The notes beneath the pieces are model-generated. The model made no database searches, had not been told where the DNA came from, and saw nothing but the letters and a program-made list of their open reading frames with translations. Below, one piece after another: positions 5,101 through 26,412 of a stretch of 64,000 nucleotides of DNA. The stretch comes from a bacterium (GTDB lineage Bacteria > Auribacterota > UBA3054): contig JAGCTE010000037.1 of the NCBI GenBank assembly GCA_017963805.1, forward strand, positions 30,074-94,073. The letters are read 5' to 3'. Numbering within the stretch: the stretch's first letter is position 1; every line of letters starts with the position of its first letter. Position numbers and translations under genes: made by a program.

Positions 5101-5102
5101 AG

Positions 5103-7993: not shown

Positions 7994-8030
7994 GACGCCC
8001 CGTTCGTATGTTCGAGCGGGGCGTTTTTTT
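7994..8030 (+). terminator. Rho-independent terminator of the kds-lpt operon
   Basis: The stem cgccccgttcg (7996-8006) pairs with cgagcggggcg (8013-8023), with one wobble. A T7 run follows at 8024-8030, about 30 nt after the lptB stop. Confidence 0.75.
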
Positions 8031-8038
8031 GCTAAAAT
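8030..8038 (+). promoter_or_regulatory. Candidate extended -10 promoter (TGCTAAAAT) for giant paralog A
   Basis: TGnTAnAAT-type element abutting the terminator T-run, ~43 nt upstream of the ATG at 8081, in an AT-rich gap. No clear -35. Confidence 0.35.
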
Positions 8039-8080
8039 ATAAATATATGTGTTTTATTTATAAAAATCTGGAAGCCTGAC

Positions 8081-11000
8081 ATGAAAAGATCATTCCTGCT
8101 TTTAATTTTCGCCGCGCTGACGCTGGCAGCCTGGGAGCGCGTCATAGACATTTCGCCGCGTGACACGCTTAAAGGCGACATCAGCGGAAACCAGGACGCC
8201 GATTTCGTCGACAATGTGAAAGCGCTCCGAATGGGGGACAAGCTCGTCATCAAGACTTCCTCGACGACCGCTCTCACGGGCACGGTCTCCTATTGCTACA
8301 TGGACGTCAACTTCGTGGAAGTGAGGGCGGGCTTCCTTGACGACAGGCTCGGCCATTTCCGCATGACCTGGGACGACGACGCAATGATGGGCAGAGTTTA
8401 CGATGCCCTTAAGCCGGAAAGCTACGATCTTTTGAAAAGATTCGGCAGACATCCCCTCAACATTGACTGCATGGACGTCGCCGCTTTCAAGAAAAAATAT
8501 CCCCTGAAGTGCGGCGTCAACGAAGGGGACGCCGAAATACACGCCTCCGCGGTCGACCAGAAGGACGATCCCAAGATCTGGGACGACGACGTCATGACGA
8601 CGCAGACCTTCCTCGTCATCTACACGAAGAACGCCAGCAAGAAATACGCGGAGCGCGGCGGCATAAACAATTTGATCGCCCAGGGCCTGGCGCTCGGAAA
8701 CCTCAGTTTGGAAAACAGCGGCGTGCCGACGAGGCTGGTGCTTGCCCACAGCGAAGCGGTGGATTACGTCAGCACCGGCAACGGAAGCACGGATCTCAGC
8801 GCTTTCGGCAGCAACAGGGGGCCTTTTAGCAACGTGAAATATCTGCAGTGCCACTACGGCGCCGACGTAAGGTCCATCGTTCCGGAAAACAGCAACTACG
8901 GCGGCCTGGCTTACGTGGCCTCCACGGCTTCCGGCATCAGCGACAGGGATCCCGCGCACATGATCAACGTGGACTACATGAGTTGGCACAGCTGGATCCA
9001 CGAGATCGGCCACAACATGGGCGGCCAGCACGCCATCGAGCAAAGCTACAGCGCCGGGCCTTCCAACGGCGGCCTTTTCGGGCATTCCGTCGGCAGCTTT
9101 TACACTTTGCGCGGCGACGACTCATATGGCAGCATCATGGCCTACGCCGGGCACAGGACGGACAATTTTTCGGACACCAACGCCTTCATAGAGAGTGTTC
9201 CTTTGGGCGTGGACGGCAGGCGCAACGTGGCCCGCACCTGGAAGAAGATCAGGAAATACGCCGCCAATTACCACGCCTTGGCCAAGCCTTCCAGAATACT
9301 GGCGGAGGAAAGCTTCCTGTACAAGCTTGACGATAGCCTTATGTGGCAGGAAGGCGGGACAGGCTGGTTCGAGCCCTGGTGGACCTGCTCCAACAAGGTC
9401 TACCAGATCTGTGGCGGCTTAAGCTATCCCGGGCTGCATTCCAGCGGCAGCGCCGTTATGATGGACGCCTGGACAAGCAACGCCATCTGGCGCTGCGGCG
9501 GCGACTATGAGCGGCGCGTTCCTTTCAACAAAGGCGGCAAATCAACTTTCTGGTTCTCCTGCCTTGTGAGCCGTCAGAACGACGACGACAATTATTTCGG
9601 CGTAGGCCTCGGCTCAAGGATCAGGATCGCGAAGAACGCCGGGACCGATCTTATCTACCTTAACAGCGCCGCGACCGGCCGCGCATTGGAGCCTTTTTCA
9701 ACCAACCTTTTCGTGGCGAAAGTCGATCTGTATCTCAACAAGGTATATTTCTGGATGGATCCCGCCCTTGATGCCGAACCGCAGCCCGATTCGGCTGACG
9801 CCAACGTTGCTTACAACATGACCGGCATCGCTTCCAACCGGGTGGTCATCGAAGGCAGGAAGGGAGCGAAGTTCATCGTTGACGAAGTCAGGCTCGGCAA
9901 AAGCTGGGAGGACGTGCTTATAAAACAGCATCCCCAGGATCCTTTGCTCGAGGAACGGGAGAATTCCCTTTGTTTCTCCTTTCTTGCCGCCGCCGGGGAA
10001 TACGACGTTTACAGAAGCGAAACGAAAGATTTTTCCGGCAGGACATATTTAAATACTGTTTCAACGGAAGGCGGAAGAGTTGTCCTTGACGACGACACGG
10101 CGGAAACGGGCAAGGTCTATTACTACATGGCCGCTCCTACAGACTCCGCGGAGGAAAGGCTTTTCACCATGCCGGTATCAGGGCTGCTCGGAAATCTAAA
10201 TCAGAGCGCGGACGCCGGCGGGCCTTACGTCGTTGGGCAGGGCGAGACCAACTATTTCGACGCCTCCGCATCCAAAGGCTGGATGCCGGCCTTCCGGTGG
10301 CAGCTTAGGGGAGTGCAGTCTCAGATGAAGACCAACAACATGGTCTACGCCTACACCGACACTTATGAACCCGGAACTTACGACGTGACTTTGATCATGC
10401 GCGACAGAAGGCGCCCTTACGACGGGGTTGTGACGAATTACACGACGCTTACCATAACAAACTCTTACCCGAAACTCAATGTCGCCCTGATCAACGGGAG
10501 TCTTATGGCGGGAAGGCCGCTCACTTTCCAGGCTTTCCCAAGCGACCCTGGCACCAACGACACATTCCTAGTCCGCTGGCGCCCCGAAGTGGACGGGGAA
10601 TGGACGGAATGGACTTCCGGCCTTTACTTTGTGCACCAATACCAGACTTCCGGCGAAAAGGTCCTGAAGTGCCAGGTCAGGGACAATTACGGAGCGGTGA
10701 CGGAAAAGGACTTGGATCTCGCTCTTGCCGAAGCCAGATCCATTCCCAGTTTCCCGACGAACGTTATCGTACCCGCTGGTTCGGACAGGGTCGGGCTTGA
10801 AATGAAAAATTTCGGGACTCTTCCTTACGATTATTCCGTGGCCGTTCCGGAAGAACAGCCTCTTTCGGTGGGGCCAATATCCGGCAGCGTCGGGCCTGAC
10901 GGCAGGACGTTGCTCGTAAAGGTCGATCCCGCCGCTCTTGGCAAGGCGGCGGAATACCGGTTCACTCTTACGGCCGACGGCAAAGAAGAGATCGTTAATG

Positions 11001-12628
11001 TCAGGACCCTGTCTTCCGACGCTTATCCTTTGCTGGCGCAGAGCGGCAATTTCACGCTCAACGAAGGCGACGTCCTCCGCCTCAACAACTTCGGCTCCAC
11101 GCCGGGCTATTCTTACAAATGGCTCCTCGACGGGGAGGAAGCGGCGGAAGGAGGCGTTTCCGAGATCGTTTCGGGAACCGACGGCGGAACGCATGTCTTG
11201 ACGCTCGCGGCCTATGACGGCGAGAACAGGCTTGCGGGCAGTTTGGAGACCAACGTCTTCGTTAATCCGCTCGTTTCGAGAGTCTATCTTGAGGAAGTTT
11301 CCCGCACGGAAAGAAGCGTGCGCTTAAGACCTGTTCTGGCGCCTTACAAAGAGGGGACGTCCATCAGGTTCAACTGGGACGAAGACATGGGCTGGACCAC
11401 CTGGCAGGCTGTTACCCCCGATTCGGAATTCGAACATGAATTCAGCGGCGGGGGAGACCGCCATATCCACTGCGAGATAAACCAGCGCGGGAGCGTGAAC
11501 GGCTCCTCTTTCATGTTCAGGCCGGAATTCAAGTTTGATCCCAAGCCTAAGATCAACGGAAGCGAAGACGCTTTCATAACGCTCTCGGCGGGCGAAAGCA
11601 TAGAGTTTGAAGGGGACGCTACCCTTGGGAATTACTGGCGCGAGGATCCCATGAATCCGGACGTCGGACTGATAGCCGACAAACTTGCCGCCGTCACCGC
11701 CTGCGGGCCCTTTGAGAAAGCCGGAACTTACTATTTCGCCTACTATGCTGGGAACGGCGAAGCGATCTCCGCTCCGAAAGTCCTTACGGTGGAAGTCGGG
11801 CTTCCTTCAAGGGAACTCGTTTCCTGGGACCTCAACGGCACGGTCACGACCAACACCATGTTCGGCTCCGGCCCCCTGGGAGGCTGCGCTCTTGCCGTTT
11901 CCACGGGGAACGAGATATACTGGATCACCAACAGCGCCTACGGTTCTTTTTCTTTCCCGAGCTTTTCCGGCGGAGACGCTCTAACGCTTAACATCACCCA
12001 TCCGGACCATTCTCCCTGCCTTACCAACATAAACGCGAACACGGGCTGCGCTTTCGCGTTGGAAAGGAGCTCCTCTTTCGGGTATCTCTATTTCAACTGC
12101 GTGGGAGAGCGTTCCAACCTTCCTTTGGAAGGCGTCGCGATAACCGTGGCCGGGCAGAAAGTGTTCACAAACAGCAAGGGGCGCTCGGCGGCCCTGGCGC
12201 TGCCCTTGGGCGATTATCTCGCGGAATTGAATTACCCCGGCATGGACCGCGTCATAACCAACGCGACGGTCGGTTCCAAGCCGGCAACGATCTCTGTTGC
12301 CATGAAAGGGCGTCAGTACGCGCTTTCCGGCATCGCTTACGGGACCGGAAACGAGATCGTGACGAACGCGCAGCTCCAGGTCCTCTCCAAGGAGACCATG
12401 AACATAGCCAAGCGCTACAATCTCGACGGCGCGCCGTTCTACGACGTGATCCTTGGCGAGACCTTAACGACGCTGCGCTTCCGCCCCTATGCATACGACA
12501 ATTTGAACATCGACATACAGCTTGAAAACAACTGGCACAAAGACACGGTTTTGACGCCGGAACCTTTATTGGCGCCGCTCCTCCTTTTTGCCATAGGCCT
12601 TATATATTTGAGAAACAAAAAAAGGTAA
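8081..12628 (+). CDS. Giant secreted metzincin-like / LamG-like / PKD-repeat protein with PEP-CTERM tail (paralog A, 1515 aa)
   Basis: - Signal peptide MKRSFLLLIFAALTLAAW.
- Exact HExxHxxGxxH zinc site (HEIGHNMGGQH), followed by YGSIMAY.
- LamG-like block ending VDEVRLGKSWEDV.
- PKD/Ig-like repeats (RWRPEVDGEWTEWTSGLYFVHQYQTSGEKVLKCQVRDNYGAVTE).
- C-terminal CarboxypepD_reg-like sandwiches.
- PEP-CTERM terminus. Confidence 0.7.
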   Translation: MKRSFLLLIFAALTLAAWERVIDISPRDTLKGDISGNQDADFVDNVKALRMGDKLVIKTSSTTALTGTVSYCYMDVNFVEVRAGFLDDRLGHFRMTWDDDAMMGRVYDALKPESYDLLKRFGRHPLNIDCMDVAAFKKKYPLKCGVNEGDAEIHASAVDQKDDPKIWDDDVMTTQTFLVIYTKNASKKYAERGGINNLIAQGLALGNLSLENSGVPTRLVLAHSEAVDYVSTGNGSTDLSAFGSNRGPFSNVKYLQCHYGADVRSIVPENSNYGGLAYVASTASGISDRDPAHMINVDYMSWHSWIHEIGHNMGGQHAIEQSYSAGPSNGGLFGHSVGSFYTLRGDDSYGSIMAYAGHRTDNFSDTNAFIESVPLGVDGRRNVARTWKKIRKYAANYHALAKPSRILAEESFLYKLDDSLMWQEGGTGWFEPWWTCSNKVYQICGGLSYPGLHSSGSAVMMDAWTSNAIWRCGGDYERRVPFNKGGKSTFWFSCLVSRQNDDDNYFGVGLGSRIRIAKNAGTDLIYLNSAATGRALEPFSTNLFVAKVDLYLNKVYFWMDPALDAEPQPDSADANVAYNMTGIASNRVVIEGRKGAKFIVDEVRLGKSWEDVLIKQHPQDPLLEERENSLCFSFLAAAGEYDVYRSETKDFSGRTYLNTVSTEGGRVVLDDDTAETGKVYYYMAAPTDSAEERLFTMPVSGLLGNLNQSADAGGPYVVGQGETNYFDASASKGWMPAFRWQLRGVQSQMKTNNMVYAYTDTYEPGTYDVTLIMRDRRRPYDGVVTNYTTLTITNSYPKLNVALINGSLMAGRPLTFQAFPSDPGTNDTFLVRWRPEVDGEWTEWTSGLYFVHQYQTSGEKVLKCQVRDNYGAVTEKDLDLALAEARSIPSFPTNVIVPAGSDRVGLEMKNFGTLPYDYSVAVPEEQPLSVGPISGSVGPDGRTLLVKVDPAALGKAAEYRFTLTADGKEEIVNVRTLSSDAYPLLAQSGNFTLNEGDVLRLNNFGSTPGYSYKWLLDGEEAAEGGVSEIVSGTDGGTHVLTLAAYDGENRLAGSLETNVFVNPLVSRVYLEEVSRTERSVRLRPVLAPYKEGTSIRFNWDEDMGWTTWQAVTPDSEFEHEFSGGGDRHIHCEINQRGSVNGSSFMFRPEFKFDPKPKINGSEDAFITLSAGESIEFEGDATLGNYWREDPMNPDVGLIADKLAAVTACGPFEKAGTYYFAYYAGNGEAISAPKVLTVEVGLPSRELVSWDLNGTVTTNTMFGSGPLGGCALAVSTGNEIYWITNSAYGSFSFPSFSGGDALTLNITHPDHSPCLTNINANTGCAFALERSSSFGYLYFNCVGERSNLPLEGVAITVAGQKVFTNSKGRSAALALPLGDYLAELNYPGMDRVITNATVGSKPATISVAMKGRQYALSGIAYGTGNEIVTNAQLQVLSKETMNIAKRYNLDGAPFYDVILGETLTTLRFRPYAYDNLNIDIQLENNWHKDTVLTPEPLLAPLLLFAIGLIYLRNKKR
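8999..9031 (+). other. Zinc-binding consensus HEIGHNMGGQH (paralog A, residues 307-317)
   Basis: Read directly from the DNA: cac gag atc ggc cac aac atg ggc ggc cag cac, in frame with 8081. Confidence 0.75.
12554..12625 (+). other. PEP-CTERM sorting signal of paralog A
   Basis: The terminal sequence TPEPLLAPLLLFAIGLIYLRNKKR has the PEP motif, a hydrophobic helix and a basic tail. Confidence 0.7.
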
Positions 12629-12632
12629 CATT

Positions 12633-15600
12633 ATGAAAAAACTCCTCCTGCTCACGGTCCTTATCGCTTGCTCTGCTTACTCAACTCCGCCTGAAAGCGA
12701 GAAAGGTCTCCTGGTGGTGGACTTCGAATCCGCCAGCGCGGCCAAGATCATGGGAACCGACGTCACGAAACTTCAGGACCCGGATTTTCCCGAACAGGTC
12801 AAAGCCCTGAAGTACAGGGATCAGATCATCTTCAAGACCGCCGAGGGGATTTTCACCGGCACGGTGGGCGTGGCTTACCGCGACGTCAACATGGTGGAAG
12901 TGAGAGCGGGCTATTTTCAGCCCCGCAACAACGGCTACAGGGAGATCTTCCACTTCACCTATGACCAGGACGCCCTGGTCGGCTGGATGGAGTACACCTA
13001 CGCGGCCAAGGAATACAACATCCTCTACACCAAGGCCAGCGGAAAACTGACGGCCTACAGCGAGGAGAGCCGCATGAAGCATTTCCGCTGCGGCAACGAG
13101 GACGGCGCGGCCCTCAGCGAGATGACGGAAGAGCAGAAGGCTGAGATCCACGCGAACTTTAACGTTCCGCAGCCGGCCACTTTCTACACCAACATCTGGG
13201 AAGTGCCGGAATACGTGACGCAGAATTACCTCATCTGCTATACCAAGGACGCCTACGAGTATTCCAAAAGGAAAGGCGGCATCAACCACCTCATGGCGCA
13301 CGGCATCGTCCACGGGACCTTGCTGCTTAGCAACAGCAATATCAAAGCCTGTCTGAGGCTGGGACACTCGCAGCTGCTTACGGATTATCCTGACAACCAC
13401 AATTCCGGCAAGAGCCTCGGCGACTTCAACGGCTACAGGAACGGCTGCCAGGACGCTTACGACATGCGCTGCCGCTACGGATGCGACATGGGTTCTATCG
13501 GCATCAAGCACGCCACCTACACCGGCCTTGCCAACGTCAACTATTCCATTACCGGCTCCGAATCCATTCCTTTCAACTGCATGGACTCCGACTTTTTGGG
13601 CGGCACCGGCTGGTGCCATGAGGACGGCCACACCATGGGCGGCCGCCACTACATCGACACCTACGCGGAAAACAACAGGAACAGCCTTTTCGACCATAGT
13701 TTCGGCTGTCACAACACTCCTCCCGGGGCGCCCAGGGAATACGGATCCGTCATGGCCCGTTCCGCCGGCCTTTTCAACTACTATTCTTCCACGAACATCT
13801 ACTATGACGGCGTGCCCATTTCCACCAACGCCAAATGCCGCGTGGCCGACACCTGGACGAAGATCAGGCGCTACGCCGCCAGGTACCGCTGCACTCCCGT
13901 CATTCCCGATGTGGATGGTTTGATCTGCAACGAAGAGTTCGAGTATCCAAGCGGCATGGGACTTATGTGGCAGGAAGGCGGCGAAGGCTTCTGCACGCCG
14001 TGGGAGAACAGCAACACCAACATTTTCCAGACCGTTTCCGACACCATGGAAAGACCGGGCTTCCACAGGGGCGGGGTGCTGAGGATCAACAACAACAACG
14101 CTGGCTCCGAATCGGTCAGGCGCTTTATTTTCTGGGGGCATAACATCAACGGCGACTATCACTACAGCAGGACTAATTTCTGGCTGAGGAGCACCCTGAA
14201 CATAAAGAATGAGAATTTGTTCTACATTTATTTGGGCAGTTTACCCATTCGATTCGGCGATGGCAGGATCAGGATCATAAACGGAAACACCGGCTTGACG
14301 TATGAATACGACAAGACTTTCAGCGTCCTGGTTCATTTCGAGATGGGTCCTGAGGACACCACGGTCAGCATTTGGAAAGATTACGCTGGAGAAAGCGCCC
14401 CGGATCCTTCCAGCGCCGGCTTTACCCTGGAAGTCAGCAACACCACTTATTTCGGCAACTACCGTTATCTCACGCTTTATTCCATGAACAACTTCCAGGG
14501 CGAACTGGATGATCTGAGGATGGGCTTCACTTACGAATCCCTTAATCCTCCTGAAAGGCCCATGGGCTTTACAATCGTTCCCGGAGGCTACACCAACGAT
14601 TACATCAGGATGGTCTGGCGCAACGTCACCGAGCCCGAAAGTTTCGAGATCTTGAGATCCACTGTCAACGACCTCGACACGGCGGTCTCCATAGCCACAT
14701 TAGAAGGCGGCACAGCCGGTTTCAAAGACGTTAACGTGGACGGCGGCGTCACGTATTACTACTGGCTGAGAGCCAATTATTCCGACCACGTCTTCACGAC
14801 GCTCGTGAGAAAAGGCGTCGCCGGCATTCCCGTCGACACGGTGGAAGCCAACGGCGAATACACCGTAGGCCAGGGGCAGATAGCGCACCTCACGGCCAAA
14901 GGCACCACGGGATACCTGCCCATGATCCGCTGGACGGTCGGAGCCTTCGACACGGTCTTCTTGACCAACCACTACGACTATGCCTTCAACGAAAGGATCA
15001 TCATGACGCCGGGCGATTACCCTGTTAAGATCGAAGTAACGGAGCAGGAGATCCAGACCGACATCCTTGAAGACACCACAGTGCTGCACGTCACCAACAG
15101 CTATCCGCACGTGACCTTCGAGTGCGAGACGGAGGAAAAGATGGCCGGCAAGCGTTTGATCTTCCATGCTTATCCCACCGACCCCGGCACCAACGACATC
15201 CTGACCGTCAGGTGGCGCTTCGCTCCCGAAAGCGAATGGAGCTCCTGGACCAACAGTTATTACTTCGCGCACACCTTCGCGGAAGCCGGCAGCTTCAAAG
15301 TAGAGTGCGAAGTCAAGGACGACTATGATGCGGTGACAAGAGAGGAGAGCACCATCGTGATCTCCGGCTCCAGCGCCATTCCTTTCTTCTCCAACAAGCT
15401 CACCATGAGCAACGGTCATTCGGCGGTCCTTGTTTTGGGCAACAAAGGCTCTTTGCCTTACGACTTCGAGATCGAGCCGCAAAGCACCCTTATTGGCGCT
15501 TATCCTTCACAGGGAACGGTCGGCGGCGAAGGCTCATATCAAACGATCCTTCTGACTTATGAGCACGACAAGACCAACGGCACAGCGGGCAGCTTTACCG

Positions 15601-17264: not shown

Positions 17265-18415
17265 ACATTTTCATACTGGCGCTCTTTGTTTCCGGCGCGC
17301 TTTTTGGAGGCGAACTTGACAGCCTCGCCACCTACGGCGAGGTGGAAGAGCATTTTAAAAAGCTTGGCTCCACCAACGCTTTTTACGAGGCGATGAACGT
17401 CATGAAGGCGCGGCATCCTTTCGATTTCTCGCCGGAATACAAAAAGGCGGTGGCGGCGCATTTCGCCGAGATAACAAACATCAACGCGAATGTCAAGCCA
17501 AGCTATCTCTACCGCACGCAGGCGCTGTTTGCCATGGCTTTCGGCCCCAAGAGGCTCTTTGCCAAAGAGCCTGCCGCGCTGAAAAAGAAACTGGACGGGA
17601 AAACGAGCTGGAAGGAGACCTACGCCCCCGTGTGGCTGAAAGTCGCAAAGGATGTGGAATCGCTGCCTTTGCCGGACGGAAGACACTGCGACGTCCTGCG
17701 TCAAAAGAAAGCAGGCGGCAAGGCGCTGCTCTTCTGCCACGGCGGCGGCATGATCCTTCCGCCCATGCTGCAGCACTGGGACTTGGCGCTCTACTTTCTC
17801 AAAAACGGGGAGAGGGATGTCTGGTTCCCGGACTACCCGTTGATCCCGGATACGGACATGTACCGCTCCACCACGACCTGCTTTGAAGCCTACAAGGAGA
17901 TGCTGAAGGTTTACAAGCCCGAGGATATCGCTTTCTTCGGCGATTCCGCCGGCTGCGCGCTTTGCCTTACGGTCTGTTTCAGGGCCAGGGACAACGGTCT
18001 CCCTCTGCCCAGCCGCCTCTTCCTCTTTTCTCCCGCGCACATCGACGTCAGCGAGGAGAACTGCAGGGAGGAGATGGATATCATCGCCCCTCTGGACATC
18101 CTGATACCGTTGCGGCTCATCGACAACTTGAACGTTTTCCTGCGTCCCGGGAAGGAAGCCGCTCACAACGAGTGCGACCCGTACCACGGGGAAATCGAAG
18201 GCTTCCCGCCCATGGACATCTTCACCGGCAGCAAGGAGGTCTTCTCCTCCCACGCCATCCGCTTCTACGAACTGGCGAAAAGGAAGGGGATAGACGCCAC
18301 GCTTAAGATCGGGAGATCGGTCATGCACGACTGGATCCTCATGCCCTTGGGCGAGGAGAGCCTGGAAGTGAGGAGAATGATAGCCGAAAAACTTAAGAAT
18401 GATAAAATTAAATAA
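17252..18415 (+). CDS. Secreted alpha/beta hydrolase, hormone-sensitive-lipase (family IV) type esterase
   Basis: HGGG oxyanion motif (LLFCHGGGMILP) and GDSAG nucleophile elbow (FFGDSAGCAL). Signal peptide MAKINIFILALFVSGALFGGE. 13-nt overlap with the end of paralog B. Confidence 0.75.
   Translation: MAKINIFILALFVSGALFGGELDSLATYGEVEEHFKKLGSTNAFYEAMNVMKARHPFDFSPEYKKAVAAHFAEITNINANVKPSYLYRTQALFAMAFGPKRLFAKEPAALKKKLDGKTSWKETYAPVWLKVAKDVESLPLPDGRHCDVLRQKKAGGKALLFCHGGGMILPPMLQHWDLALYFLKNGERDVWFPDYPLIPDTDMYRSTTTCFEAYKEMLKVYKPEDIAFFGDSAGCALCLTVCFRARDNGLPLPSRLFLFSPAHIDVSEENCREEMDIIAPLDILIPLRLIDNLNVFLRPGKEAAHNECDPYHGEIEGFPPMDIFTGSKEVFSSHAIRFYELAKRKGIDATLKIGRSVMHDWILMPLGEESLEVRRMIAEKLKNDKIK
18400..18408 (+). 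promoter_or_regulatory. Candidate internal extended -10 promoter (TGATAAAAT) ahead of paralog C
   Basis: TGnTAAAAT sits inside the last codons of the esterase gene, ~32 nt upstream of the ATG at 18440. An AT-rich (AAATAAATAAATAA) spacer and an AGGATA RBS follow. Confidence 0.3.
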
Positions 18416-18439: not shown

Positions 18440-21400
18440 ATGAAAAAAGCACTTCTGCTTTGTTCGCTCGCGGCTGTTTTCACCGCGGTTTCTTTCGCCA
18501 CCCCGCCGAAGGATATTCTGACCGTCGACCTCACATGTCAGGAGCCGCCAACCATAACGGGCGGCTATGAAAGGGACATCACCAAGCTCCAACCCAGCGA
18601 TCTGCCGGAGCAGATCGAAGCGCTGGAAGTGGGGGACACCATTTTCTTCAATTCCCCGGACGGCGTTTTCACCGGCAAATGCACGGTCGCCTACCGCGAC
18701 ATCAACCTTGTGGAAGTCAGAGCCGGCTATTTCCAGCCCCGCATGAACGGCTACAACGAGATCTGGCGCTTCACGTTCGACCAGGACCAGATGCTAGGGC
18801 AGGTTGACTACACCTACCTCAACCACGAATACGCCATACTCTACAGCGACAGGACGAAAAGGCTGACGGCGCTCGAACCGCCCAAAAGGAGCTTCACCTG
18901 CGGCGGCTGCGACGGACCCATCGACGACGTTATCGCTAGGGACGGCGTGAGGCAGATAATGGACAAAATGGAAGCCGAGCAATACTACACCAACGACTGG
19001 CGGTGCGACGAATACGTCACTCAGAACTACATGATCGTCTACACTAAGGAGGCTTTGGAAGAGGCGAAGTCCCGGGGCGGCATCAACAACGTCATGGCCC
19101 AGGGCATCGTTTTGGGAACGCTTATCCTAAGCAACAGCCACGTGAGGTCGTGCTTCAACCTCGTGCATTCCCAGCTCGTCGATTATCCCAACCCGGTGGG
19201 CGAGATCTGCAATTCCAGCCTCGCGCTCAGCAGCCTGTGCAACTCCAGGAACGGGCTTGAGCAGATCGAGCAGCTGAGAGCCCGCTACGGCGCCGACATG
19301 TGCTCGATCGCCGTTCTGATGCCGACCTACACCGGCCTTGCCTACGTGTCTGGCGGCGTGGCCGGCAGCGAGAGCTCCGCCAACAACTGCATGGACGTGA
19401 ACTTCGTCAACACCACCGGCTGGATCCACGAGGACGGCCACAACATGGGCGGCCAGCACTACGACGAGACCGGAACGAGCAGCGGCGGACTCTTCGGCCA
19501 CAGCCACGGCTGCCACAACACGCCTCCCGGGGCGCCCATGGAGTACGGTTCGGTCCTGGCCAGATCCAACGGCATTTTCAACTATTTCAGCTCCACCAAC
19601 ATTTTCTACGACGGAGTGCCGATCTCCACGAACCTGAAGTGCCAGGTGGCGCTGACCTGGGAGAAGACCAGGCGCTACGCCGCGCGCTACCGCTCCGTCC
19701 CTTACCACGCCGCGGGAGACATGCTTCTGCACGAGAGCTTCAATTACCCGATCGGCAGCGGCTTGATGTTCAAGGAAGGCGGCTGCGGCTTCGCTTCGCC
19801 CTGGTACGCCTGCCTTTCCAACATTTTCTACATTCAGGACCGGGATCTCGGCGACGAACAAGCCATGCATGAAGGCGGAAGCCTAAGGATCTGCAACGAG
19901 GGTTCCGAGACGGCCACCACCAGGCGCTTCATCAACTGGATGGATTATTCTCCCGCCTCTCTTACCACGCTCGCCGGCCATGACCTCTGGCTTTCCGTCT
20001 GGGCCGACATGGACGAAGAGGGCGGCTCTTACGGCTACGGCGGTTTCAGGCTCGGCGGTTCCTACGAAGCCTTCACCTTCTACAGGGACGGCACGATCAA
20101 CACGTTCGATTTCGGCACCGGCTACAAGCACACCTTCGGAACGCCCGCCCACTACCTGGTCCGCTGCACGATAACGACCAACGAGACCGGCTACGCCTAC
20201 ACTGACGTCTACATGTGGGTCAACCCGGATATGACGACGGAACCCGATGATTCCGACGCGGTCTTCCACAAGTACGGCTACTCTTACTGGGGCTCCGGTT
20301 TCTCCAGTCTGTATCTCTACGCGCCCTCCGGCTTCAAGATGACCTTCGACGAATTCTGCCTGGGCTACACCTTCGATTCAATCAAGAACAGGGCCGTGCC
20401 TTACGGTTTCGTCTGCCTGAACGGCGACGACAAGATAAAGTTGCGCTGGCGCAACACCTCGAAAGGGGACGTCTCATTGTGGCGCAACACCGTGGAAGAC
20501 CTCGCCACGGCCGTCAAGATAAGGGAAGGGGACAGCACCTTCCAGGCTTACGACGACGCGGACGCCGTCCCGGGCCAGACTTACTTCTACTGGCTGACCG
20601 GCGACTTCCCGACTCCGGAACCCAGAAAGGGCGTCAGGGGCATTCCCGACGTCAGCGCGGAATGTAACGGCGAATACGTGATCGGTCAGGGCCAGGCGGC
20701 GCATCTTTCCGCGGAAGGCAGCAAAGGCTATTTCCCGGCCGTGCGCTGGATCGTCGGCAACGACATGACGCTTTTCTCAACAAACTTCTATTACTACGAC
20801 TACAAAGAGGACCAGATCTATTGGCCGGGCGATTACAATGTGGAGGTGAGGGTGACGGACCGTCAGTTCAAGACCGCCGTCTGCACCAACTACACCATGC
20901 TGCATGTCACCAATGCGTACCCGCACGTCGCCATCTGGAGCGAAGCGAGAACGAGAATGGTCGACGTGCCTCAGATCTTCACCGCCGATCCCAAAGACCC
21001 CGGCATCCACGACACGCTTGACATCCGCTGGGATTTCGGCGACGGCGGCGGCTTCTCCGACTGGACGAACTATTACTTCGCCAGGCACACTTACGAAGCG
21101 AGCGGAACGTACACCGTCAAGTGCCAGGTCAAAGACAATTACGGCGCCTGGACGGAAACGACTCTGCCTTACGTCATCGACGCTTCCGAAGCGCGCCCCG
21201 TGGTCCCGGCGACCCTTACGCTGGAAAACGGCCGCAGCGGCGTTTTGCTTCTCTCCAACCTCGGCTCCGTTCCCTGCGATTACGTCATCAGGAATTCCTT
21301 CGATTCCCTTAAATTCGCGCCCGTCAGGGGCACGATAGATCCCACCGCTTCCGGATCCGTCCCGGTGGCCGTGTGGATCGATCCCCTTAAGACCGGCGGA

Positions 21401-23101
21401 ATGGCCAAGAACTTCAACGTCAAGGTCGCGATAGGGGATACGGAATACGACTTGGTCGTAAGCACTCCCGCCATCACAGACCACGTCGTCGATCCCAACG
21501 GCCCGTACGTGGCGCACCGCGGCTCGAAAGTGACGCTTGACGGCACCGGCACCATGGGCGGATACCGCTACAAGTGGCTAGTCGACGGGGAAGCGGTTGG
21601 CGAAGCCAGCGCCAGCTTCATGGAGACTATCACGGCCGATTACGGCGTGGGCGAACATACGCTGACGCTGAGGCTGGAGAAGGGGACGGGCGCCGTTTTG
21701 GCCACCACCAACACGACGCTGACCATCATTGACAACAATCCTAACGTCTACCTTGCGGAGACCGCTTCGCTTGGCACTACCGTGACGTACGAGCCCACAG
21801 TTGTGCCGCAAGACAGGGAAGGGCTGCAGGTCCGCTACAACTGGGACAACGGAGCCGGCTGGACGATCTGGCAGGACCTTGGCCCCGTGGAGCACACCTT
21901 CGAGAAAGACAGGCCCTATTACGTGCAGTGCCAGATCAAGGACGAAAACGGCAACATGAACAGCACGGCCTTGTATTACGACGGCAACAAGCCGCTCTCA
22001 GTCAGCGCGGCCTTCCCGGACAACACCCAGGATTACACCTGCTATTCCGGCAAGCCCGTAACCATCAAGACCAGCTTCCTCTTGGGCAAGAGAGTCCTGT
22101 GGCGCCAGGATCCCTACAATCCCGTAAGGAACATCCTCAGCGCCTCGGAAGGCAGCGAGATCACCTGCTCCACCGCGGTGCCGGGCGTTTATTACATCGC
22201 TGTCTACGCCGCGGACGACGAATTCGTGAGCTCGCCGAAGATCCTGAAGCTGACGGTATTGAAGTTCGAACCGGTTCTCCCCGAGAACCACGTGATCTCC
22301 GGCGTCGTCTGCACCAACACGTATTTCGGCAGCGGATTCCTTGGCGGCGGGCTTGTGAGAGCGGTGGGCGACGGGTTCGCCTTCGCGGTCTCCAACAGGG
22401 CGGACGGCACCTTCATCTTCGACGCCGTGCCGGCTGGCAAAGTTTACCTTTCCTTCTCCCACGACGAATTCGAAGGCAGGATCGCAGAAGTGGTTTTGAC
22501 CAATTCCGCCAAGTGCGTGGTCTTCGATACGGAAGCCACCGGTAAGCACGGCTTCGTCTACGCCGGCGTGGCGGACGACAACTCCAACTTCCCCCTGGTG
22601 GACGCCGAGGCGCAGATCGCCAACTTCAAGTCGACCGTCACATCCGCCGGCCGCACCACCGCCTTCACGCTGCCTTACGGCGAATACATCATGACCGTAA
22701 GGTACGGCGAAAGGACGCAGTATGTGACGAACGTGACCTCCTCGACCGGCACGCCGACCATACCTGTCAGGATGACGGGCTACAGCCCCTACGTTTCCGG
22801 CTTTTTGTACGGCACCGGCTGCGAGATAGTCACCAACGCCCAGATCCAGGTGGTCAACGCCAAGACGCAGAACATCGTTCAGCGCCACAACATGAACGGG
22901 CTGCCTTTCTTCGACATCTACCTCGGGCTCGATCAGACGGCCGTCCTGAGGGTCAGGCCGGTCGATTACGACAACCAGAACTATACCGTGACGACGGAAG
23001 GAAGTTTCTACAAGGATTTTGTCCTGACGCCGGAACCGGCTTCTTTTATGTTCTTTATTCTGGCGCTCATGGCATTCTTGCGCCGTAACCAAAAATGTTA
23101 A
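18440..23101 (+). CDS. Giant secreted metzincin-like / LamG-like / PKD-repeat protein with PEP-CTERM tail (paralog C, 1553 aa)
   Basis: Signal peptide MKKALLLCSLAAVFTAVSFA. Zinc site HEDGHNMGGQH, followed by YGSVLAR. Textbook PKD signature: WDFGDG at 21029-21046, then ..HTYEASGTYTVKCQVKDNYG. Terminal TPEPASFMFFILALMAFLRRNQKC. Most similar to paralog B. Confidence 0.72.
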   Translation: MKKALLLCSLAAVFTAVSFATPPKDILTVDLTCQEPPTITGGYERDITKLQPSDLPEQIEALEVGDTIFFNSPDGVFTGKCTVAYRDINLVEVRAGYFQPRMNGYNEIWRFTFDQDQMLGQVDYTYLNHEYAILYSDRTKRLTALEPPKRSFTCGGCDGPIDDVIARDGVRQIMDKMEAEQYYTNDWRCDEYVTQNYMIVYTKEALEEAKSRGGINNVMAQGIVLGTLILSNSHVRSCFNLVHSQLVDYPNPVGEICNSSLALSSLCNSRNGLEQIEQLRARYGADMCSIAVLMPTYTGLAYVSGGVAGSESSANNCMDVNFVNTTGWIHEDGHNMGGQHYDETGTSSGGLFGHSHGCHNTPPGAPMEYGSVLARSNGIFNYFSSTNIFYDGVPISTNLKCQVALTWEKTRRYAARYRSVPYHAAGDMLLHESFNYPIGSGLMFKEGGCGFASPWYACLSNIFYIQDRDLGDEQAMHEGGSLRICNEGSETATTRRFINWMDYSPASLTTLAGHDLWLSVWADMDEEGGSYGYGGFRLGGSYEAFTFYRDGTINTFDFGTGYKHTFGTPAHYLVRCTITTNETGYAYTDVYMWVNPDMTTEPDDSDAVFHKYGYSYWGSGFSSLYLYAPSGFKMTFDEFCLGYTFDSIKNRAVPYGFVCLNGDDKIKLRWRNTSKGDVSLWRNTVEDLATAVKIREGDSTFQAYDDADAVPGQTYFYWLTGDFPTPEPRKGVRGIPDVSAECNGEYVIGQGQAAHLSAEGSKGYFPAVRWIVGNDMTLFSTNFYYYDYKEDQIYWPGDYNVEVRVTDRQFKTAVCTNYTMLHVTNAYPHVAIWSEARTRMVDVPQIFTADPKDPGIHDTLDIRWDFGDGGGFSDWTNYYFARHTYEASGTYTVKCQVKDNYGAWTETTLPYVIDASEARPVVPATLTLENGRSGVLLLSNLGSVPCDYVIRNSFDSLKFAPVRGTIDPTASGSVPVAVWIDPLKTGGMAKNFNVKVAIGDTEYDLVVSTPAITDHVVDPNGPYVAHRGSKVTLDGTGTMGGYRYKWLVDGEAVGEASASFMETITADYGVGEHTLTLRLEKGTGAVLATTNTTLTIIDNNPNVYLAETASLGTTVTYEPTVVPQDREGLQVRYNWDNGAGWTIWQDLGPVEHTFEKDRPYYVQCQIKDENGNMNSTALYYDGNKPLSVSAAFPDNTQDYTCYSGKPVTIKTSFLLGKRVLWRQDPYNPVRNILSASEGSEITCSTAVPGVYYIAVYAADDEFVSSPKILKLTVLKFEPVLPENHVISGVVCTNTYFGSGFLGGGLVRAVGDGFAFAVSNRADGTFIFDAVPAGKVYLSFSHDEFEGRIAEVVLTNSAKCVVFDTEATGKHGFVYAGVADDNSNFPLVDAEAQIANFKSTVTSAGRTTAFTLPYGEYIMTVRYGERTQYVTNVTSSTGTPTIPVRMTGYSPYVSGFLYGTGCEIVTNAQIQVVNAKTQNIVQRHNMNGLPFFDIYLGLDQTAVLRVRPVDYDNQNYTVTTEGSFYKDFVLTPEPASFMFFILALMAFLRRNQKC
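19427..19459 (+). other. Zinc-binding consensus HEDGHNMGGQH (paralog C, residues 330-340)
   Basis: Read directly from the DNA: cac gag gac ggc cac aac atg ggc ggc cag cac, in frame with 18440. Confidence 0.75.
23027..23098 (+). other. PEP-CTERM sorting signal of paralog C
   Basis: The terminal sequence TPEPASFMFFILALMAFLRRNQKC has the PEP motif, a hydrophobic helix and a basic tail. Confidence 0.7.
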
Positions 23102-23110
23102 GGATCATTT

Positions 23111-23506
23111 ATGGCTCTTTCCGCAATCGCTTCCTACAACGGCGACCTTAAGTGCACCGCCAAATTGGCGGGCTCCCAAACTTCCATCGAGACCGACGCC
23201 AAGGGGACGCCGGGCGTCTTTTCGCCGACCGACGTGCTGTCCGCCGCACTGGCCTCCTGCACGGCCAGCATGATCGGCTTCGTGGCCGCCCAGCAGAAAC
23301 TGGACATGACCGGCCTTTCGGTGGAAGTAGGGAAAGAGATGCAGCAGTCTCCCGCTTCCGTAAAGACTTTCAAAGTGAAAGTCGTTTTCCCCAAGATCGC
23401 CCTTGACGATCCCATGAAGAAAAGGCTGGAGGGCGCGGCCAAAGCCTGCCCGGTGAAGAACAGCCTCAATCCGTCAATCGAAATAATTACCGAATTTGTC
23501 TACTAA
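23111..23506 (+). CDS. OsmC/Ohr-family protein (peroxiredoxin-like)
   Basis: 131 aa. SPTDVLSAALASCTASMIGFVA and AAKACPVKNSL blocks, with the two conserved Cys spaced as in the OsmC family. Confidence 0.8.
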   Translation: MALSAIASYNGDLKCTAKLAGSQTSIETDAKGTPGVFSPTDVLSAALASCTASMIGFVAAQQKLDMTGLSVEVGKEMQQSPASVKTFKVKVVFPKIALDDPMKKRLEGAAKACPVKNSLNPSIEIITEFVY

Positions 23507-24941
23507 ATTTTCAGACCGCCTTTTGATGCTGCGCCCGCTCTGCGCGGGCGCGGCTCTCTTTTTCCTCGTCCTTTCCCAGTTCGTTTTCCGACTGCAGTTC
23601 GGGCCGGGGGGGGCGCTCGCTTCCGCGGATTCCGCGAAATATGTCCGCATAGCGCTTGAGGGGGGCCTGCCTCACACGCCGCTTTTTCCCCTTTACACGC
23701 TGCTGCTTCGCGTCTTCGCGCGTCTGAGATTCCTTTACGAGCCGGGGGCCAACCTCGCGCTTTTCTCAGCGCTTCTTGTCGCTTTGGGGTGCGTGTTCCT
23801 CTGGGACGCGCTGAGCCGCCGCTTCAAGGACCGCTTCTTCACTTTCTTTTCCGTTTTGGCGGTGAGCTTTCTGCCCTTCATTGTCACGGCCGCGACGGAA
23901 GTGACGCCCGTTTCCCTCTCCCTCTGCCTTTTCTTTTTCGCCTACGCCGTCCTTTCGAACGACAGCGTTCCGCTGCCCTTGAAATTCGTTCCCTGCGGGC
24001 TCCTTGCTTTCCATGATCCCCTGGCGCTCTGGTTCTTCGCGCTGCTTTTTCCCTTCGCCGCCGTTTTGCTTTTCAAAGCCGGGAAGGGCAAGGCTTTCAT
24101 AACAGGCGTCTTTTTGGCGCTTGCCATTGGCTTGCTTCCTTACCTGTACGCCGTTTTGGTTTTCCAAAGAGGGGAGAGCTGCGAATATCTGAGAAGGGAA
24201 GACTTCCTGAAAAGCCTGGTTTGCGCCGTCCTGAACGGCCAATTCTGGAGCAATTACTTTGTCCTGCCGTTTTCAAATTACGGTGAAAGCCTAATTAATT
24301 TCTGCCGCGCCTTTTTCATATCTTCCGCTCTTTGCCTTTACATTGTTCCCGTTCTCCTTCTCGGCCTTTTCTACAGGAAAGCCAGGGCGTTCGCCACAAT
24401 CGAGAACACGAGCGCCTTCGCCGCCGTCACGGCGACCTTTTTGTTTTGCGTTCCGAGCTTCCATTTCTACATCGCGCAGTGGTTCTGGCTCCTCAACGCG
24501 TATCTTGCGGTCTTTTTGGCTTGCTCTTTCGTTTACATCTCAAAGGCGAAGGAGATGCGGCCGGCGCTTCTTCCTCTTGTTTTTATCGGCATCCTCGTCA
24601 TGGCCGTCCACAGTTTCGGCCATGTTCTCGAAAGGAGAAGCTCTTTCGAGGCGTCGAAGCTTGCCCAGGCCTTCGGAGCGCTTCCCTTTGGAAGCGTTTT
24701 GGTGACCGAGGACGTTTACACCGACGGGGAATTTTACCGCTATCATCTCGCCGCGCTGCCTAAGCTCGTTTCCAAAGACGTCACGGTCGTATCCGAGATC
24801 GTCACGGGCAAAAGGAATTTCTTCATTTCGCCCGCCGTGAAAAATTTTCTTTTGGAGCACGACGTGCCTTTTTATCTTGTAAGCGACGTCGACGGCCTTG
24901 CCGTTTACGAACTAGGGGAGAAGGCTGACGGTGAAAAGTAA
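23496..24941 (+). CDS. Polytopic membrane protein, DUF2723/TMEM260-like GT-C glycosyltransferase candidate
   Basis: About 10 or more predicted TM helices. The N-proximal segment ADSAKYVRIALEGGLPHTPLFPLYTLL resembles the DUF2723 signature. The track start is TTG at 23496, overlapping the OsmC end; the first ATG is at 23526. Family call from motif memory only. Confidence 0.45.
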   Translation: MSTKFSDRLLMLRPLCAGAALFFLVLSQFVFRLQFGPGGALASADSAKYVRIALEGGLPHTPLFPLYTLLLRVFARLRFLYEPGANLALFSALLVALGCVFLWDALSRRFKDRFFTFFSVLAVSFLPFIVTAATEVTPVSLSLCLFFFAYAVLSNDSVPLPLKFVPCGLLAFHDPLALWFFALLFPFAAVLLFKAGKGKAFITGVFLALAIGLLPYLYAVLVFQRGESCEYLRREDFLKSLVCAVLNGQFWSNYFVLPFSNYGESLINFCRAFFISSALCLYIVPVLLLGLFYRKARAFATIENTSAFAAVTATFLFCVPSFHFYIAQWFWLLNAYLAVFLACSFVYISKAKEMRPALLPLVFIGILVMAVHSFGHVLERRSSFEASKLAQAFGALPFGSVLVTEDVYTDGEFYRYHLAALPKLVSKDVTVVSEIVTGKRNFFISPAVKNFLLEHDVPFYLVSDVDGLAVYELGEKADGEK

Positions 24942-26412
24942 GCCTTGGCTGATCGATCTCCTTTTGCTTTTCCTTTTGGCAGCCGCGGCCTACCTTTCCT
25001 CGTTCAAAGGCGATTGGCAGTTCGACGACTTCAGGTGCATCGTCGACAACGAGGCGCTGAAAAGCGGATCGCTTTCGAGACTCTGGCGTTTTTCTCCCGG
25101 GCGCTTCCTTGTCTTCCTTACCTTTTGGGCCAATTATGAATCCTGCGGCCTCGACATCTTCTGGTACCATTTCGCCAACCTTTTCATCCATGTCCTGAAC
25201 GGCTTTCTGTTCTACTATTTTCTTCTGCTCCTGCAGGAAGCCGACGGAAGCGACGGGGAGAAACGTTTCCCGGCCTTCATGTGCGCCGCGCTCTTCTTGG
25301 TCCATCCCGCGCAGACGCAGGCGGTGACCTACATTGTCCAGCGGCTGGAACTGATGTGCTTCACTTTCATTCTGGCGCATCTGATCTTCCTGCTTTTGGC
25401 CTTGAAAAACAAGCTCTTCTATATCCCGGCCGCCATCGTTCTCGCAATGGGACTTTTCTGCAAGGAGAACATGGCGGTGGCTCCGCTGATCGTCGCGCTG
25501 GGATACTTCGTTTTCGCCTCCTCGGACCTTAAGACTTTTTTCAAAGAGAAAAAGAAGATTCTCGCCCTTGCCGCGGCGGTCTTTTTAATTCTCTGCCTTG
25601 CCGTTCTGCGTTTCGCGGGCGTCTGGAAGGGGACAAGTTTCGACTTTTCGCCGCTGCAGAGGCTCTACGCCGACACGCCCGACCTTGCGGCTTATTTCGC
25701 CACGCAGTTCAAAGTCTGGGCCGTTTACCTCAGGCTGTGCTTCTGGCCCTTCGGGCTTCGGCTGGAGTACGACGTTCCCCAGGAAGGTTTCGCTTCGCCC
25801 TTTGTCATATTGGCGATACTCTTTTGGCTCGCCCTGGCGGTTTTCGCCTTCATAAACCGGAAAAGATGGCCGTACCTGGCTTTCGGGCTGGGCTTTTTCG
25901 CGCTTGCGCTTTCGCCCGCGGCCACGCTCATTCCCAACGGCCTCTATGAGCACCGCCTTTACTGCGCGCTGCCAGGCGTCCTTATAGCTGTCGTTTTCAC
26001 GCTGTTTCCCAAAAAGAATCTTTACAGCGCGGCTTTTCTGATCGCTGTCATTCTGCTTTTCACCCACGCGGCTTTCCAGCGCAATTTCTACTGGAGCGAC
26101 GCGGAGCTGATCTGGCGGGACAATCTCAAATACTCTCCGGAGAACTTCCGCGTGAACGCCAACGTCGGGCAAGCGCTTATGGCAAGAGAACGGTATCTCG
26201 AGGCCCTGCCGTACCTGAAAAAAGCCATAGAGCTCAGGCCCCAGACGGTCGAAGCCCACTACAACCTCGCCTGCTGCCTGGCAGGCATGGGGGATCTTAC
26301 GGGCGCTAGGGAAGAGCTGATCGTCGCGAAAAAGCTGAAGAGCAAGCTCCCGGAAGTCAAGCGCCTCGTGGATGAAGCGCTGAAAGCGATCGATCAGGCT
26401 TTGGCCGAGTAG
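24931..26412 (+). CDS. TMTC-like (DUF1736/PMT_2-type) GT-C membrane protein with C-terminal TPR repeats
   Basis: GTG start overlapping the previous gene by 11 nt. The first loop motif is YLSSFKGDWQFDDFRCIVDNEAL. A polytopic body is followed by a TPR tail (YLEALPYLKKAIELRPQTVEAHYNLACCLAGMGDLTGA). Paralogous to 43422-45239. Confidence 0.6.
   Translation: MKSKPWLIDLLLLFLLAAAAYLSSFKGDWQFDDFRCIVDNEALKSGSLSRLWRFSPGRFLVFLTFWANYESCGLDIFWYHFANLFIHVLNGFLFYYFLLLLQEADGSDGEKRFPAFMCAALFLVHPAQTQAVTYIVQRLELMCFTFILAHLIFLLLALKNKLFYIPAAIVLAMGLFCKENMAVAPLIVALGYFVFASSDLKTFFKEKKKILALAAAVFLILCLAVLRFAGVWKGTSFDFSPLQRLYADTPDLAAYFATQFKVWAVYLRLCFWPFGLRLEYDVPQEGFASPFVILAILFWLALAVFAFINRKRWPYLAFGLGFFALALSPAATLIPNGLYEHRLYCALPGVLIAVVFTLFPKKNLYSAAFLIAVILLFTHAAFQRNFYWSDAELIWRDNLKYSPENFRVNANVGQALMARERYLEALPYLKKAIELRPQTVEAHYNLACCLAGMGDLTGAREELIVAKKLKSKLPEVKRLVDEALKAIDQALAE

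Follow-up and report, generated by a model that had tools for sequence, protein, structure and literature searches.

A clade-specific array of giant PEP-CTERM metzincin genes joined to a TMEM260-like/TMTC-like gene pair in a UBA3054 bacterium

What holds together a row of seven closely packed genes for giant surface proteins, an esterase, an OsmC-like protein and two membrane proteins, and what would the membrane proteins modify? To address this question, we analysed a 64,000-nucleotide stretch of DNA (64 kb; the window) from a UBA3054 bacterium (contig JAGCTE010000037.1, positions 30,074 to 94,073), in which seven plus-strand genes encode three giant PEP-CTERM proteins with metzincin heads (G1, G2 and G3), the esterase (E), the OsmC-like protein (O) and the membrane proteins T1 and T2. 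A first-pass annotation of the sequence had proposed a self-contained module that makes, modifies and surface-anchors a family of metalloproteases. We found that the description which fits the unit best is that of a clade-specific PEP-CTERM cargo array joined to an ancient TMEM260-like/TMTC-like GT-C pair. The most economical hypothesis is that T1-T2 is a periplasmic protein O-glycosyltransferase, possibly heteromeric, acting on PEP-CTERM cargo, and we hold it tentatively, at somewhat less than an even chance. Of the new results, the universal pairing of T1 with T2, together with the hypervariability of T1, is the most durable.

We found the T1-T2 pair well beyond the relatives of this bacterium. 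Four distant T2 homologues (~34% identical) have a gene immediately upstream with a 4-nt overlap, annotated as PF11028 in three of the four, and hhalign of the T1 family against these upstream partners gave a full-length match (99.9% probability, E 2.6e-31). A metagenome scan with T1-like motifs added further distant loci, each with a T2-like gene directly downstream. A T1-like gene is followed by a T2-like gene in 7/7 independent distant loci, usually with a 4-nt overlap. That the two genes invariably adjoin each other in different lineages, with start and stop overlapping, suggests that the two proteins are co-produced in stoichiometric amounts. Judged from sequence, T1-T2 is an ancient, translationally coupled pair that occurs on its own in unrelated bacteria. 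The two proteins were also considered as diverged paralogues, an idea that hhalign rejected (probability 0.2%). Full-text searches on DUF2723, bacterial TMEM260 and bacterial TMTC/GT-C returned no study of a bacterial pair of this type.

Two kinds of context were observed downstream of the distant pairs. In one, a protein of ~560-590 aa follows (L015 7010-8686, L016 11818-13587, L028 6930-8597); it is annotated HTH_GRAD in L015 and L016, and the L028 protein resembles that of L016 at the C-terminus. In the other, a UvrD-like helicase gene lies downstream of T2 (L018/L031/L033).

The T1 of the window has no Pfam match, and PF11028 (TMEM260-like/DUF2723) is silent on it even at E = 10. The T1 family comprises 19 proteins, all metagenomic, and seven of 13 members match PF11028 weakly (best E 1.8e-4). 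When the family profile was compared with PDB sequences, the sole match was TMEM260 (9rql; E 5.9e-4, residues 18-417). Specifically, D45 of T1 (ADSAKF; nt 23628-23630) aligns with D52 of 9rql_A (GGDSGE), and HTPLFPLY with HPPGYPLF. D52 is the proposed catalytic residue of TMEM260 and lies in the first extracytoplasmic loop (PMC10214176). D45 is invariant across the T1 family of the clade, and nearly invariant once the distant partners are added. An AlphaFold2 (AF2) model of T1 (predicted template modelling score, pTM, 0.70) gave 18 best Foldseek PDB matches that are all GT-C proteins, including ArnT, PglB, STT3, AftB, Pmt4 and DPY19, and residues 383-481 form a small alpha/beta domain in the model, with no TPR match. 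By its family profile, the D45/D52 alignment and the predicted fold, T1 is a TMEM260-like GT-C enzyme, in agreement with its initial designation as a DUF2723-like GT-C protein.

We also found that T1 is the fastest-diverging gene of the cluster. Its identity to the window is only ~45% in relatives whose G3, O and T2 keep 84-92% (L001, L002, L003, L013, L014). There are at least four T1 allele classes, 45-58% identical to one another, and the G3, O and T2 that flank them are 72-92% identical to the window across L001, L002, L003, L005, L013, L014 and L019. In L001 and L013, nucleotide similarity breaks inside T1, at ~23701-24642. This pattern is compatible with an exchange of alleles or with diversifying selection acting on an enzyme of surface modification, and it does not discriminate between a protein and a glycan acceptor.

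The partner, T2, has 9-11 hydrophobic segments followed by TPR matches at aa 407-479 (~3 repeats), and its AF2 model (predicted local distance difference test score, pLDDT, 91) has a helical membrane domain and then TPR helices. The T2 family is large and bacterial, with 318 matches that are typically 27-34% identical over ~90% of the length, and the homologues are often labelled 'protein O-mannosyl-transferase' by JGI. PMT_2 was detected in the six full-length homologues tested (E 1.6e-5 to 3.8e-9), and no PMT_2 match was obtained for T2 itself. An FDD motif (D32 D33, nt 25024-25029), with the DD in the first loop after transmembrane (TM) helix 1, is invariant across 30 homologues of 26-86% identity; other invariant residues are R58, H125-P126, R138, K178-E179 and E340-H-R342-x-Y344.

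Motifs M2-M7 of the TMTC proteins are SHKSYRP, RxD, KE(T/Q)xxT, DW, PxxP and ERxxY (PMC7801869 Table 4). Compared by eye, T2 carries look-alikes at R58-FLxFLTF, R138-x-E, K178-E179 and E340-H-R342-x-Y344, and SHK, DW and PxxP are not recognisable in it. With FDD counted in, its invariant residues resemble M1, M3, M4 and M7. DUF1736 (PF08409), the TM7-TM8 loop of TMTC proteins, gave no Pfam match in T2 or in 13 membrane-domain homologues. The first description of T2 as a TMTC-like GT-C protein is upheld for the membrane/TPR architecture and the DD motif, with KE and E-x-R-x-Y as look-alikes; DUF1736 and a direct GT-C sequence match are missing from it.

Two further T2-like genes were observed. 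One lies in the window on the minus strand (43422-45239) and encodes a 605-aa protein with a DD-motif membrane domain and TPR that shows 29% identity with T2 across 444 residues (E 6e-30). A TMEM260-like partner is absent, and its neighbours are a glycoside hydrolase (GH)/trehalase-like gene and a gene for an acidic repeat protein. The other, more distant, belongs to a cultured gammaproteobacterium, Idiomarina seosinensis (CP085211.1; L034 6520-12480), where it comes after a type IV pilus/secretin cluster and a Slr4-family gene, and where genes for phosphomannomutase and GDP-mannose pyrophosphorylase follow it directly. This locus is a possible culturable model and possibly a hint of a mannose donor.

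To characterise the putative cargo, we examined the three giants. They are collinear full-length paralogues, 30-41% identical by BLASTP (G2 is 30% identical to G1 and 41% to G3), with no internal repeats at the BLASTP level. Each begins with a Sec-type N-terminus, read from the sequence as MK(K/R) followed by a hydrophobic stretch. Each carries HExxHxxGxxH, at aa 307, 329 and 330, respectively (HEIGHNMGGQH in G1, nt 8999-9031; HEDGHTMGGRH in G2, nt 13617-13649; HEDGHNMGGQH in G3, nt 19427-19459). The catalytic region (~aa 175-420) matches Reprolysin_3/4/5: with the Pfam model Reprolysin_5, G1 scored 36.4 bits (cut-off 27), G3 a sub-threshold 24.6 bits and G2 no match, and with Reprolysin_3 G1 scored 31.3 bits (cut-off 22.4). 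A PKD domain lies at ~residue 800-900 in all three (38.9 bits in G2, 46.7 bits in G3) and a weak CarboxypepD_reg-like domain at ~residue 1350. At the C-terminus, all three have TPEP, a hydrophobic stretch and a basic cluster (G1, TVLTPEPLLAPLLLFAIGLIYLRNKKR, nt 12545-12625; G2, AILTPEPALIALIALLLALKWRR, nt 17193-17261; G3, nt 23018-23098). The PEP-CTERM model TIGR02595 (cut-off 16) gave 18.2 bits for G1, 14.6 bits for G3 and no match for G2. The reading of all three as PEP-CTERM metzincin/PKD proteins therefore stands as far as signal peptide, zinc motif, PKD domain and TPEP tail are concerned, and the Reprolysin and TIGR02595 cut-offs are passed by G1 only.

In an alignment of 13 members of the giant family, the signal peptide, the zinc ligands and TPEP are invariant. 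A conserved EYGSVMARS segment follows ~40 residues past the zinc site, and its GSVMA is plausibly the Met-turn. The whole family profile gave only weak FN3, PKD and Ig-like matches in the PDB. A word-indexed search found 14 giant proteins, all orthologues of G1, G2 or G3. When the first 800 residues were used in an exhaustive HMMER search, 138 representative proteins scored at E <= 1e-10; among those listed, most match in the catalytic region only and some only in a repeated segment at ~aa 650-720. Full-length or large N-terminal matches were limited to seven representative clusters, three of which (P0154, P0155 and P0159) are new, lie outside the clade and again have the signal peptide, zinc motif and PEP-CTERM tail. 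The giant family thus appears to be small and its 1,500-aa architecture with a PEP-CTERM tail rare. The giants are exported by Sec, and their metzincin zinc site, apparently intact, is borne on a long stalk of beta-sandwich type.

What connects the T1-T2 pair to PEP-CTERM cargo? Among 323 open reading frames (ORFs) in the window, only the three giants have PEP-CTERM-like tails. In two relatives, unrelated PEP-CTERM genes are inserted into the array: a 1187-aa LTD+CotH+Fn3_assoc protein is encoded between E and G3 in L012 (1337-4900), and a 428-aa GLUG-motif protein between G2 and E in L010 (2467-3753). Three of the seven distant T1-T2 loci (L015, L016 and L033) have PEP-CTERM-like genes within 10 kb, and those of L016 include two genes for large beta-propeller proteins directly upstream of the pair. 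PEP-CTERM proteins are described as being rich in residues associated with glycosylation and as possibly glycosylated, with no dedicated transferase named (PMC12188702).

An observation from outside the clade concerns the giants themselves. In L036, giant P0159 (1693 aa, 2346-7427) is divergent from a 482-aa LTD-domain protein (731-2179, minus strand) with a PEP-CTERM tail. With the LTD protein of L012, this indicates that LTD-type PEP-CTERM proteins accompany giants in two lineages.

The ORF list reproduced exactly the seven genes as first annotated (Table 1). The intergenic gaps are 4, 24 and 9 nt, and the other junctions overlap by 11-13 nt. The O/T1 and T1/T2 start-stop overlaps are 11 nt each, suggesting translational coupling. 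Upstream lies a Kdo/Lpt operon (kdsB, kdsA, kdsD, kdsC, lptC, two lptA-like genes and lptB), and the terminator noted earlier behind lptB was recovered. An AT-rich leader of 55 nt separates it from G1. The candidate promoter that had been placed here was not recovered: a sigma-70 scan gave no plus-strand site in 8026-8080 and a regional site count at chance level. This is weak evidence, as the promoter type of the lineage may differ. At the other end, a convergent GT4 gene (26394-27470) overlaps the end of T2. An Rfam scan of 7000-28000 gave no match.

Table 1. Features of the seven-gene unit (positions in the window)
Feature	Position	Strand	Description
Upstream intrinsic terminator	7994..8025	+	13-bp stem with 9 G-C pairs and T-run; ends the kds/lpt operon, 5' boundary of the unit
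G1	8081..12628	+	1515 aa; secreted, metzincin head and beta-sandwich stalk, PEP-CTERM tail
G2	12633..17264	+	1543 aa; giant paralogue with lipobox-like signal peptide (LIAC)
E	17252..18415	+	387 aa; secreted family-IV (HSL-type) alpha/beta-hydrolase esterase
G3	18440..23101	+	1553 aa; giant paralogue directly upstream of O-T1-T2
O	23111..23506	+	131 aa; cytoplasmic OsmC-family protein with both family cysteines
T1	23496..24941	+	481 aa; TMEM260-like GT-C membrane glycosyltransferase, TTG start, ~95-aa C-terminal alpha/beta domain
Conserved GC-rich hairpin with U-tract	23528..23554	+	11 pairs, 10 of them G-C; candidate attenuator / partial terminator
T2	24931..26412	+	493 aa; polytopic, FDD motif, ~3 C-terminal TPR (TMTC/TfpW-like), GTG start

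The first-pass annotation had seen no hairpin terminator inside the unit. We found that a conserved hairpin, with TCTCTTTTTC directly 3' of the stem, is the strongest terminator-like site of the region. It lies 22 nt past the stop codon of O, within the 5' coding region of T1, and thus inside the unit. In eight loci (seven of the T1 allele class of the window, plus L019), the stem CUGCGCCCGC/GCGGGCGCAG is invariant, the U-tract is kept and the loops vary, with a predicted folding free energy of -24 to -30 kcal/mol. The hairpin is weaker in the other, divergent T1 alleles and absent in L004. There is zero covariation to count, and because conserved LRP...AGA codons encode the stem, the fact that it is conserved is not cleanly separable from protein constraint. 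The hairpin may be an attenuator that lowers the expression of T1-T2 relative to the structural genes, or a mere consequence of these codons. Strand, spacing and order are as expected of an operon, with the conserved terminator-like hairpin between O and T1. Taken together, the seven genes are a lineage-specific array that is probably co-transcribed.

The genomes that match the unit are 'bacterium UBP3_UBA3054' and ruminant gut metagenome-assembled genomes of the RGIG series. The order kdsB-to-lptB then G1-G2-E-G3 recurs in L021, and G2-E-G3-O-T1-T2 recurs in 8/8 GTDB species representatives and several metagenome contigs. The position of G3 next to O-T1-T2 is kept in all relatives. In the most divergent one, L004 (39-52% identity), a giant, O, T1 and T2 are still followed by the convergent GT4 gene. 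The relatives that share the order form one narrow clade, in which neighbouring proteins are 80-98% identical (OmpA 92-99%, X221 91-97%). In some of them (L001 11605-20043; L010; L013), T2 is followed by LactamaseB, Wzm, Wzt (with Wzt_C) and NadA, and then by a 615-626-aa protein, a fourth giant PEP-CTERM metzincin and ExbB/ExbD. This LactamaseB-Wzm-Wzt-NadA-X626-giant-ExbB/ExbD block stands apart from T1-T2 in L035 (1472-13503).

Esterase E matches Abhydrolase_3 (PF07859) with 80.6 bits against a cut-off of 25. It has an N-terminal signal peptide and the motifs HGGG at aa 163 (nt 17738-17749) and GDSAG at aa 230 (nt 17939-17953), and it scores below the cut-offs of the NCBIfam models for the GESAG/GTSAG HSL subfamilies. 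O matches OsmC (PF02566) with 60.4 bits against 27.5, has no signal peptide, and its cysteines C50 and C113 (ACPV) are kept in relatives down to 52% identity. Since it reaches only ~23 bits with the OsmC and Ohr subfamily models (cut-offs ~86-89), O is a canonical member of neither subfamily. These results confirm the initial calls of an HSL-type esterase and an OsmC-like protein. A general tie of E or O to the T1-T2 pair was considered and rejected, as neither gene is found at any distant pair.

On the far side of T2, a minus-strand ORF at 31792-34353 encodes 853 aa with a Wzy_C match (O-antigen ligase / polymerase / O-oligosaccharyltransferase type; E 5e-7, just below the cut-off), and it lies between a Wzx-like flippase gene and a GT4 gene. 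An 872-aa plus-strand ORF over the same stretch (31750-34368) was rejected as a shadow of this gene. The Wzy_C ORF and these two neighbours form, together with GT4a, OmpA and DedA, a surface-glycan cluster that converges on the unit. Elsewhere in the window, a minus-strand gene (59815-61566) encodes an [FeFe]-hydrogenase large subunit with ferredoxin-like domains, consistent with a strictly anaerobic, fermentative rumen organism.

How would a protein O-glycosyltransferase work in this setting? An exosortase encoded outside the window would be needed to sort the giants to the cell surface. T1 and T2 would act together, possibly as a heteromer as Pmt1 and Pmt2 do, on the periplasmic side of the inner membrane, where a polyprenyl-phosphate-linked sugar would serve as their donor. 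The target would be Ser/Thr residues on the folded beta-sandwich domains of exported PEP-CTERM proteins, which the TPR domain of T2 would recruit, and the giants would be modified while still tethered by their C-terminal helix. The hairpin past O would keep the expression of T1-T2 below that of the abundant structural genes.

Several observations weigh against this hypothesis. No exosortase was found among the window genes scanned against Pfam, and no donor-sugar gene or polyprenyl-phosphate sugar synthase is recognisable in the 64 kb, so the unit cannot be called a self-contained module as first proposed. The GT-C assignment of T2 is indirect and draws on architecture, motifs and the PMT_2 matches of homologues: profiles of its membrane domain (A3, A7) found LptG at E 0.16 or nothing among PDB sequences and nothing in Pfam, and Foldseek on the full model was swamped by TPR proteins, with AftD at rank 44 as the only GT-C match. 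None of the seven distant T1-T2 loci encodes a giant, an esterase or an OsmC protein nearby. Conversely, adjacency of giants and T1-T2 had to be rejected as a general rule, as T1-T2 adjoins neither the giant of L035, a fourth paralogue, nor the distant P0159 in L036 (a short contig). The conserved synteny that the first-pass annotation had looked to is thus present in every relative examined, but only within one narrow clade, so shared descent is enough to explain it and the order says little about function. The proximity of PEP-CTERM genes to distant pairs is suggestive only, because there is no genomic background rate for those genomes.

Could T1-T2 modify a lipid or a glycan instead, such as lipid A/lipopolysaccharide (LPS) core, an O-antigen/exopolysaccharide (EPS) intermediate or a periplasmic glycan, with its place after the giants being incidental? 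We consider this somewhat unlikely, although it is the strongest competitor. The top Foldseek match of T1 is ArnT (5f15, E 1e-5), a lipid A glycosyltransferase, and the pair exists without giants. The surroundings are LPS/envelope-glycan genes, with kds/lpt upstream, two GT4 genes, the Wzy_C protein and the Wzx-like flippase downstream, and Wzm/Wzt after T2 in relatives. O-antigen polymerases and ligases are typically hypervariable between clusters with conserved flanks, as T1 is. However, a protein O-mannosyltransferase is the only sequence relative of T1 whose structure has been solved, and the distant pairs are not consistently in LPS/EPS loci, given the HTH_GRAD proteins and UvrD-like helicases downstream of them. 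Furthermore, T2 carries TPR, which are tied to protein substrates in TMTC, TMEM260, OGT and TfpW (PMC10214176; bioRxiv 10.1101/2020.04.19.049825).

It is also possible that there is no functional module at all, and that a PEP-CTERM array abuts an unrelated T1-T2 pair with E and O as passengers, in an order that persists through close kinship. We regard this as unlikely. All genomes with the full order belong to the one clade with closely similar OmpA and X221, a conserved terminator-like hairpin separates O from T1, the array tolerates inserted genes, and giants and T1-T2 each occur alone elsewhere. Nevertheless, G3-O-T1-T2 is retained in L004 despite its divergence, the overlaps at O/T1 and T1/T2 suggest translational coupling, what has been inserted in relatives is once more PEP-CTERM genes and not random ones, and PEP-CTERM genes recur near distant pairs. 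A role of T1-T2 in the sorting step, in which the pair builds or glycosylates a glycolipid or polysaccharide acceptor for exosortase-processed PEP-CTERM proteins, seems to us very unlikely. GT-C enzymes use lipid-linked donors at the periplasmic face, a site of action compatible with such a role, and T1-T2 adjoins PEP-CTERM genes in the clade and in 3/7 distant loci. For exosortase-processed proteins, attachment to the outer membrane and/or polysaccharide has been proposed (PMC12188702). But around none of the T1-T2 pairs examined is there an exosortase gene, and four of the seven distant pairs have no PEP-CTERM gene nearby.

Protein O-glycosylation of PEP-CTERM cargo by T1-T2 thus remains the reading that we prefer. 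In its boldest form, T1-T2 would be a widespread two-subunit bacterial GT-C protein O-glycosyltransferase for beta-sandwich-rich PEP-CTERM cargo, a counterpart and possibly the evolutionary source of metazoan TMEM260/TMTC, with the hypervariable T1 setting strain-specific glycan or acceptor specificity; we give this form a low probability. In either form, the locus provides a concrete, testable substrate hypothesis for the bacterial relatives of TMEM260. If the hypothesis is true, it would reveal a new route of protein O-glycosylation in bacteria, linked to surface proteins that an exosortase sorts, and shed light on the origin of the domain-specific O-mannosylation pathways of animals. It would also offer a first view of the cell surface in UBP3, a rumen lineage without cultured members, with giant displayed metalloproteases and a rapidly diversifying modification gene. 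If it is not true, the locus is an ordinary clade-specific envelope-gene neighbourhood.

We compared the unit with known systems. Like the cargo of the PEP-CTERM/exosortase system (TIGR02595), the giants have a signal peptide and a C-terminal PEP motif, hydrophobic helix and basic cluster, and the envelope-glycan genes around their locus are typical of such systems (PMC12188702). They differ from the usual small, low-complexity cargo in being unusually large and enzymatic, the tails of G2 and G3 fall below the TIGR02595 cut-off, and the window has no exosortase gene. Among reprolysin-like (M12-type) metzincins, Mep72 shares HExxHxxGxxH with the giants, which match the N-terminal 180 positions of its model. 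However, an identification as Mep72 (NF052434 equivalog) was rejected, since G1 and G3 reach 52.5 and 44.2 bits against a cut-off of 645 and cover model positions 5-194 of 573 only, and the 1,500-aa build with a PEP-CTERM tail is different.

For T1, the closest system by sequence is metazoan TMEM260 (PF11028), a protein O-mannosyltransferase that modifies Ig-like IPT domains and whose bacterial relatives are mentioned only as 'distant homologs in bacteria' (PMC10214176). T1 is the sole protein of the window with a sequence-level link to it, and the two have a GT-C fold and the D45/D52 correspondence in common. Unlike TMEM260, T1 has no TPR-containing C-terminal region and ends in the ~95-aa alpha/beta domain instead, with the TPR found on its partner T2. 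The cadherin-domain O-mannosyltransferases TMTC1-4 of metazoans (GT-C/PMT clan) are closest to T2 by architecture and motifs. Specifically, T2 shares a multi-TM domain with C-terminal TPR, a DD motif in the first extracytoplasmic loop (EL1), look-alikes of KE and E-x-R-x-Y at matching positions and an LVHPxQTxAVTYI segment (PMC7801869), but lacks DUF1736, SHKSYRP and DW and has only ~3 TPR repeats. As in the heterodimeric protein O-mannosyltransferases Pmt1-Pmt2 and POMT1-POMT2, two different GT-C subunits would be needed together; unlike those, T1 and T2 show no detectable homology with one another, and neither has a MIR domain.

The closest bacterial precedent is TfpW, which carries out group IV pilin arabinosylation in Pseudomonas aeruginosa. 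TfpW is a GT-C protein of 11 TM helices that carries a DDx motif and, in the periplasm, a TPR domain, and its gene immediately follows pilA, which encodes its protein substrate (bioRxiv 10.1101/2020.04.19.049825). By this description, T2 follows the same plan of a polytopic membrane domain, DD(x) in the first periplasmic loop and periplasmic TPR, and it is encoded on the same strand as its candidate protein substrates and directly downstream of them. The two systems differ in that T2 always comes with a second, TMEM260-like GT-C gene whereas TfpW stands alone, that no donor-sugar biosynthesis genes lie near T2, and that the candidate substrates are 1,500-aa PEP-CTERM proteins rather than pilins.

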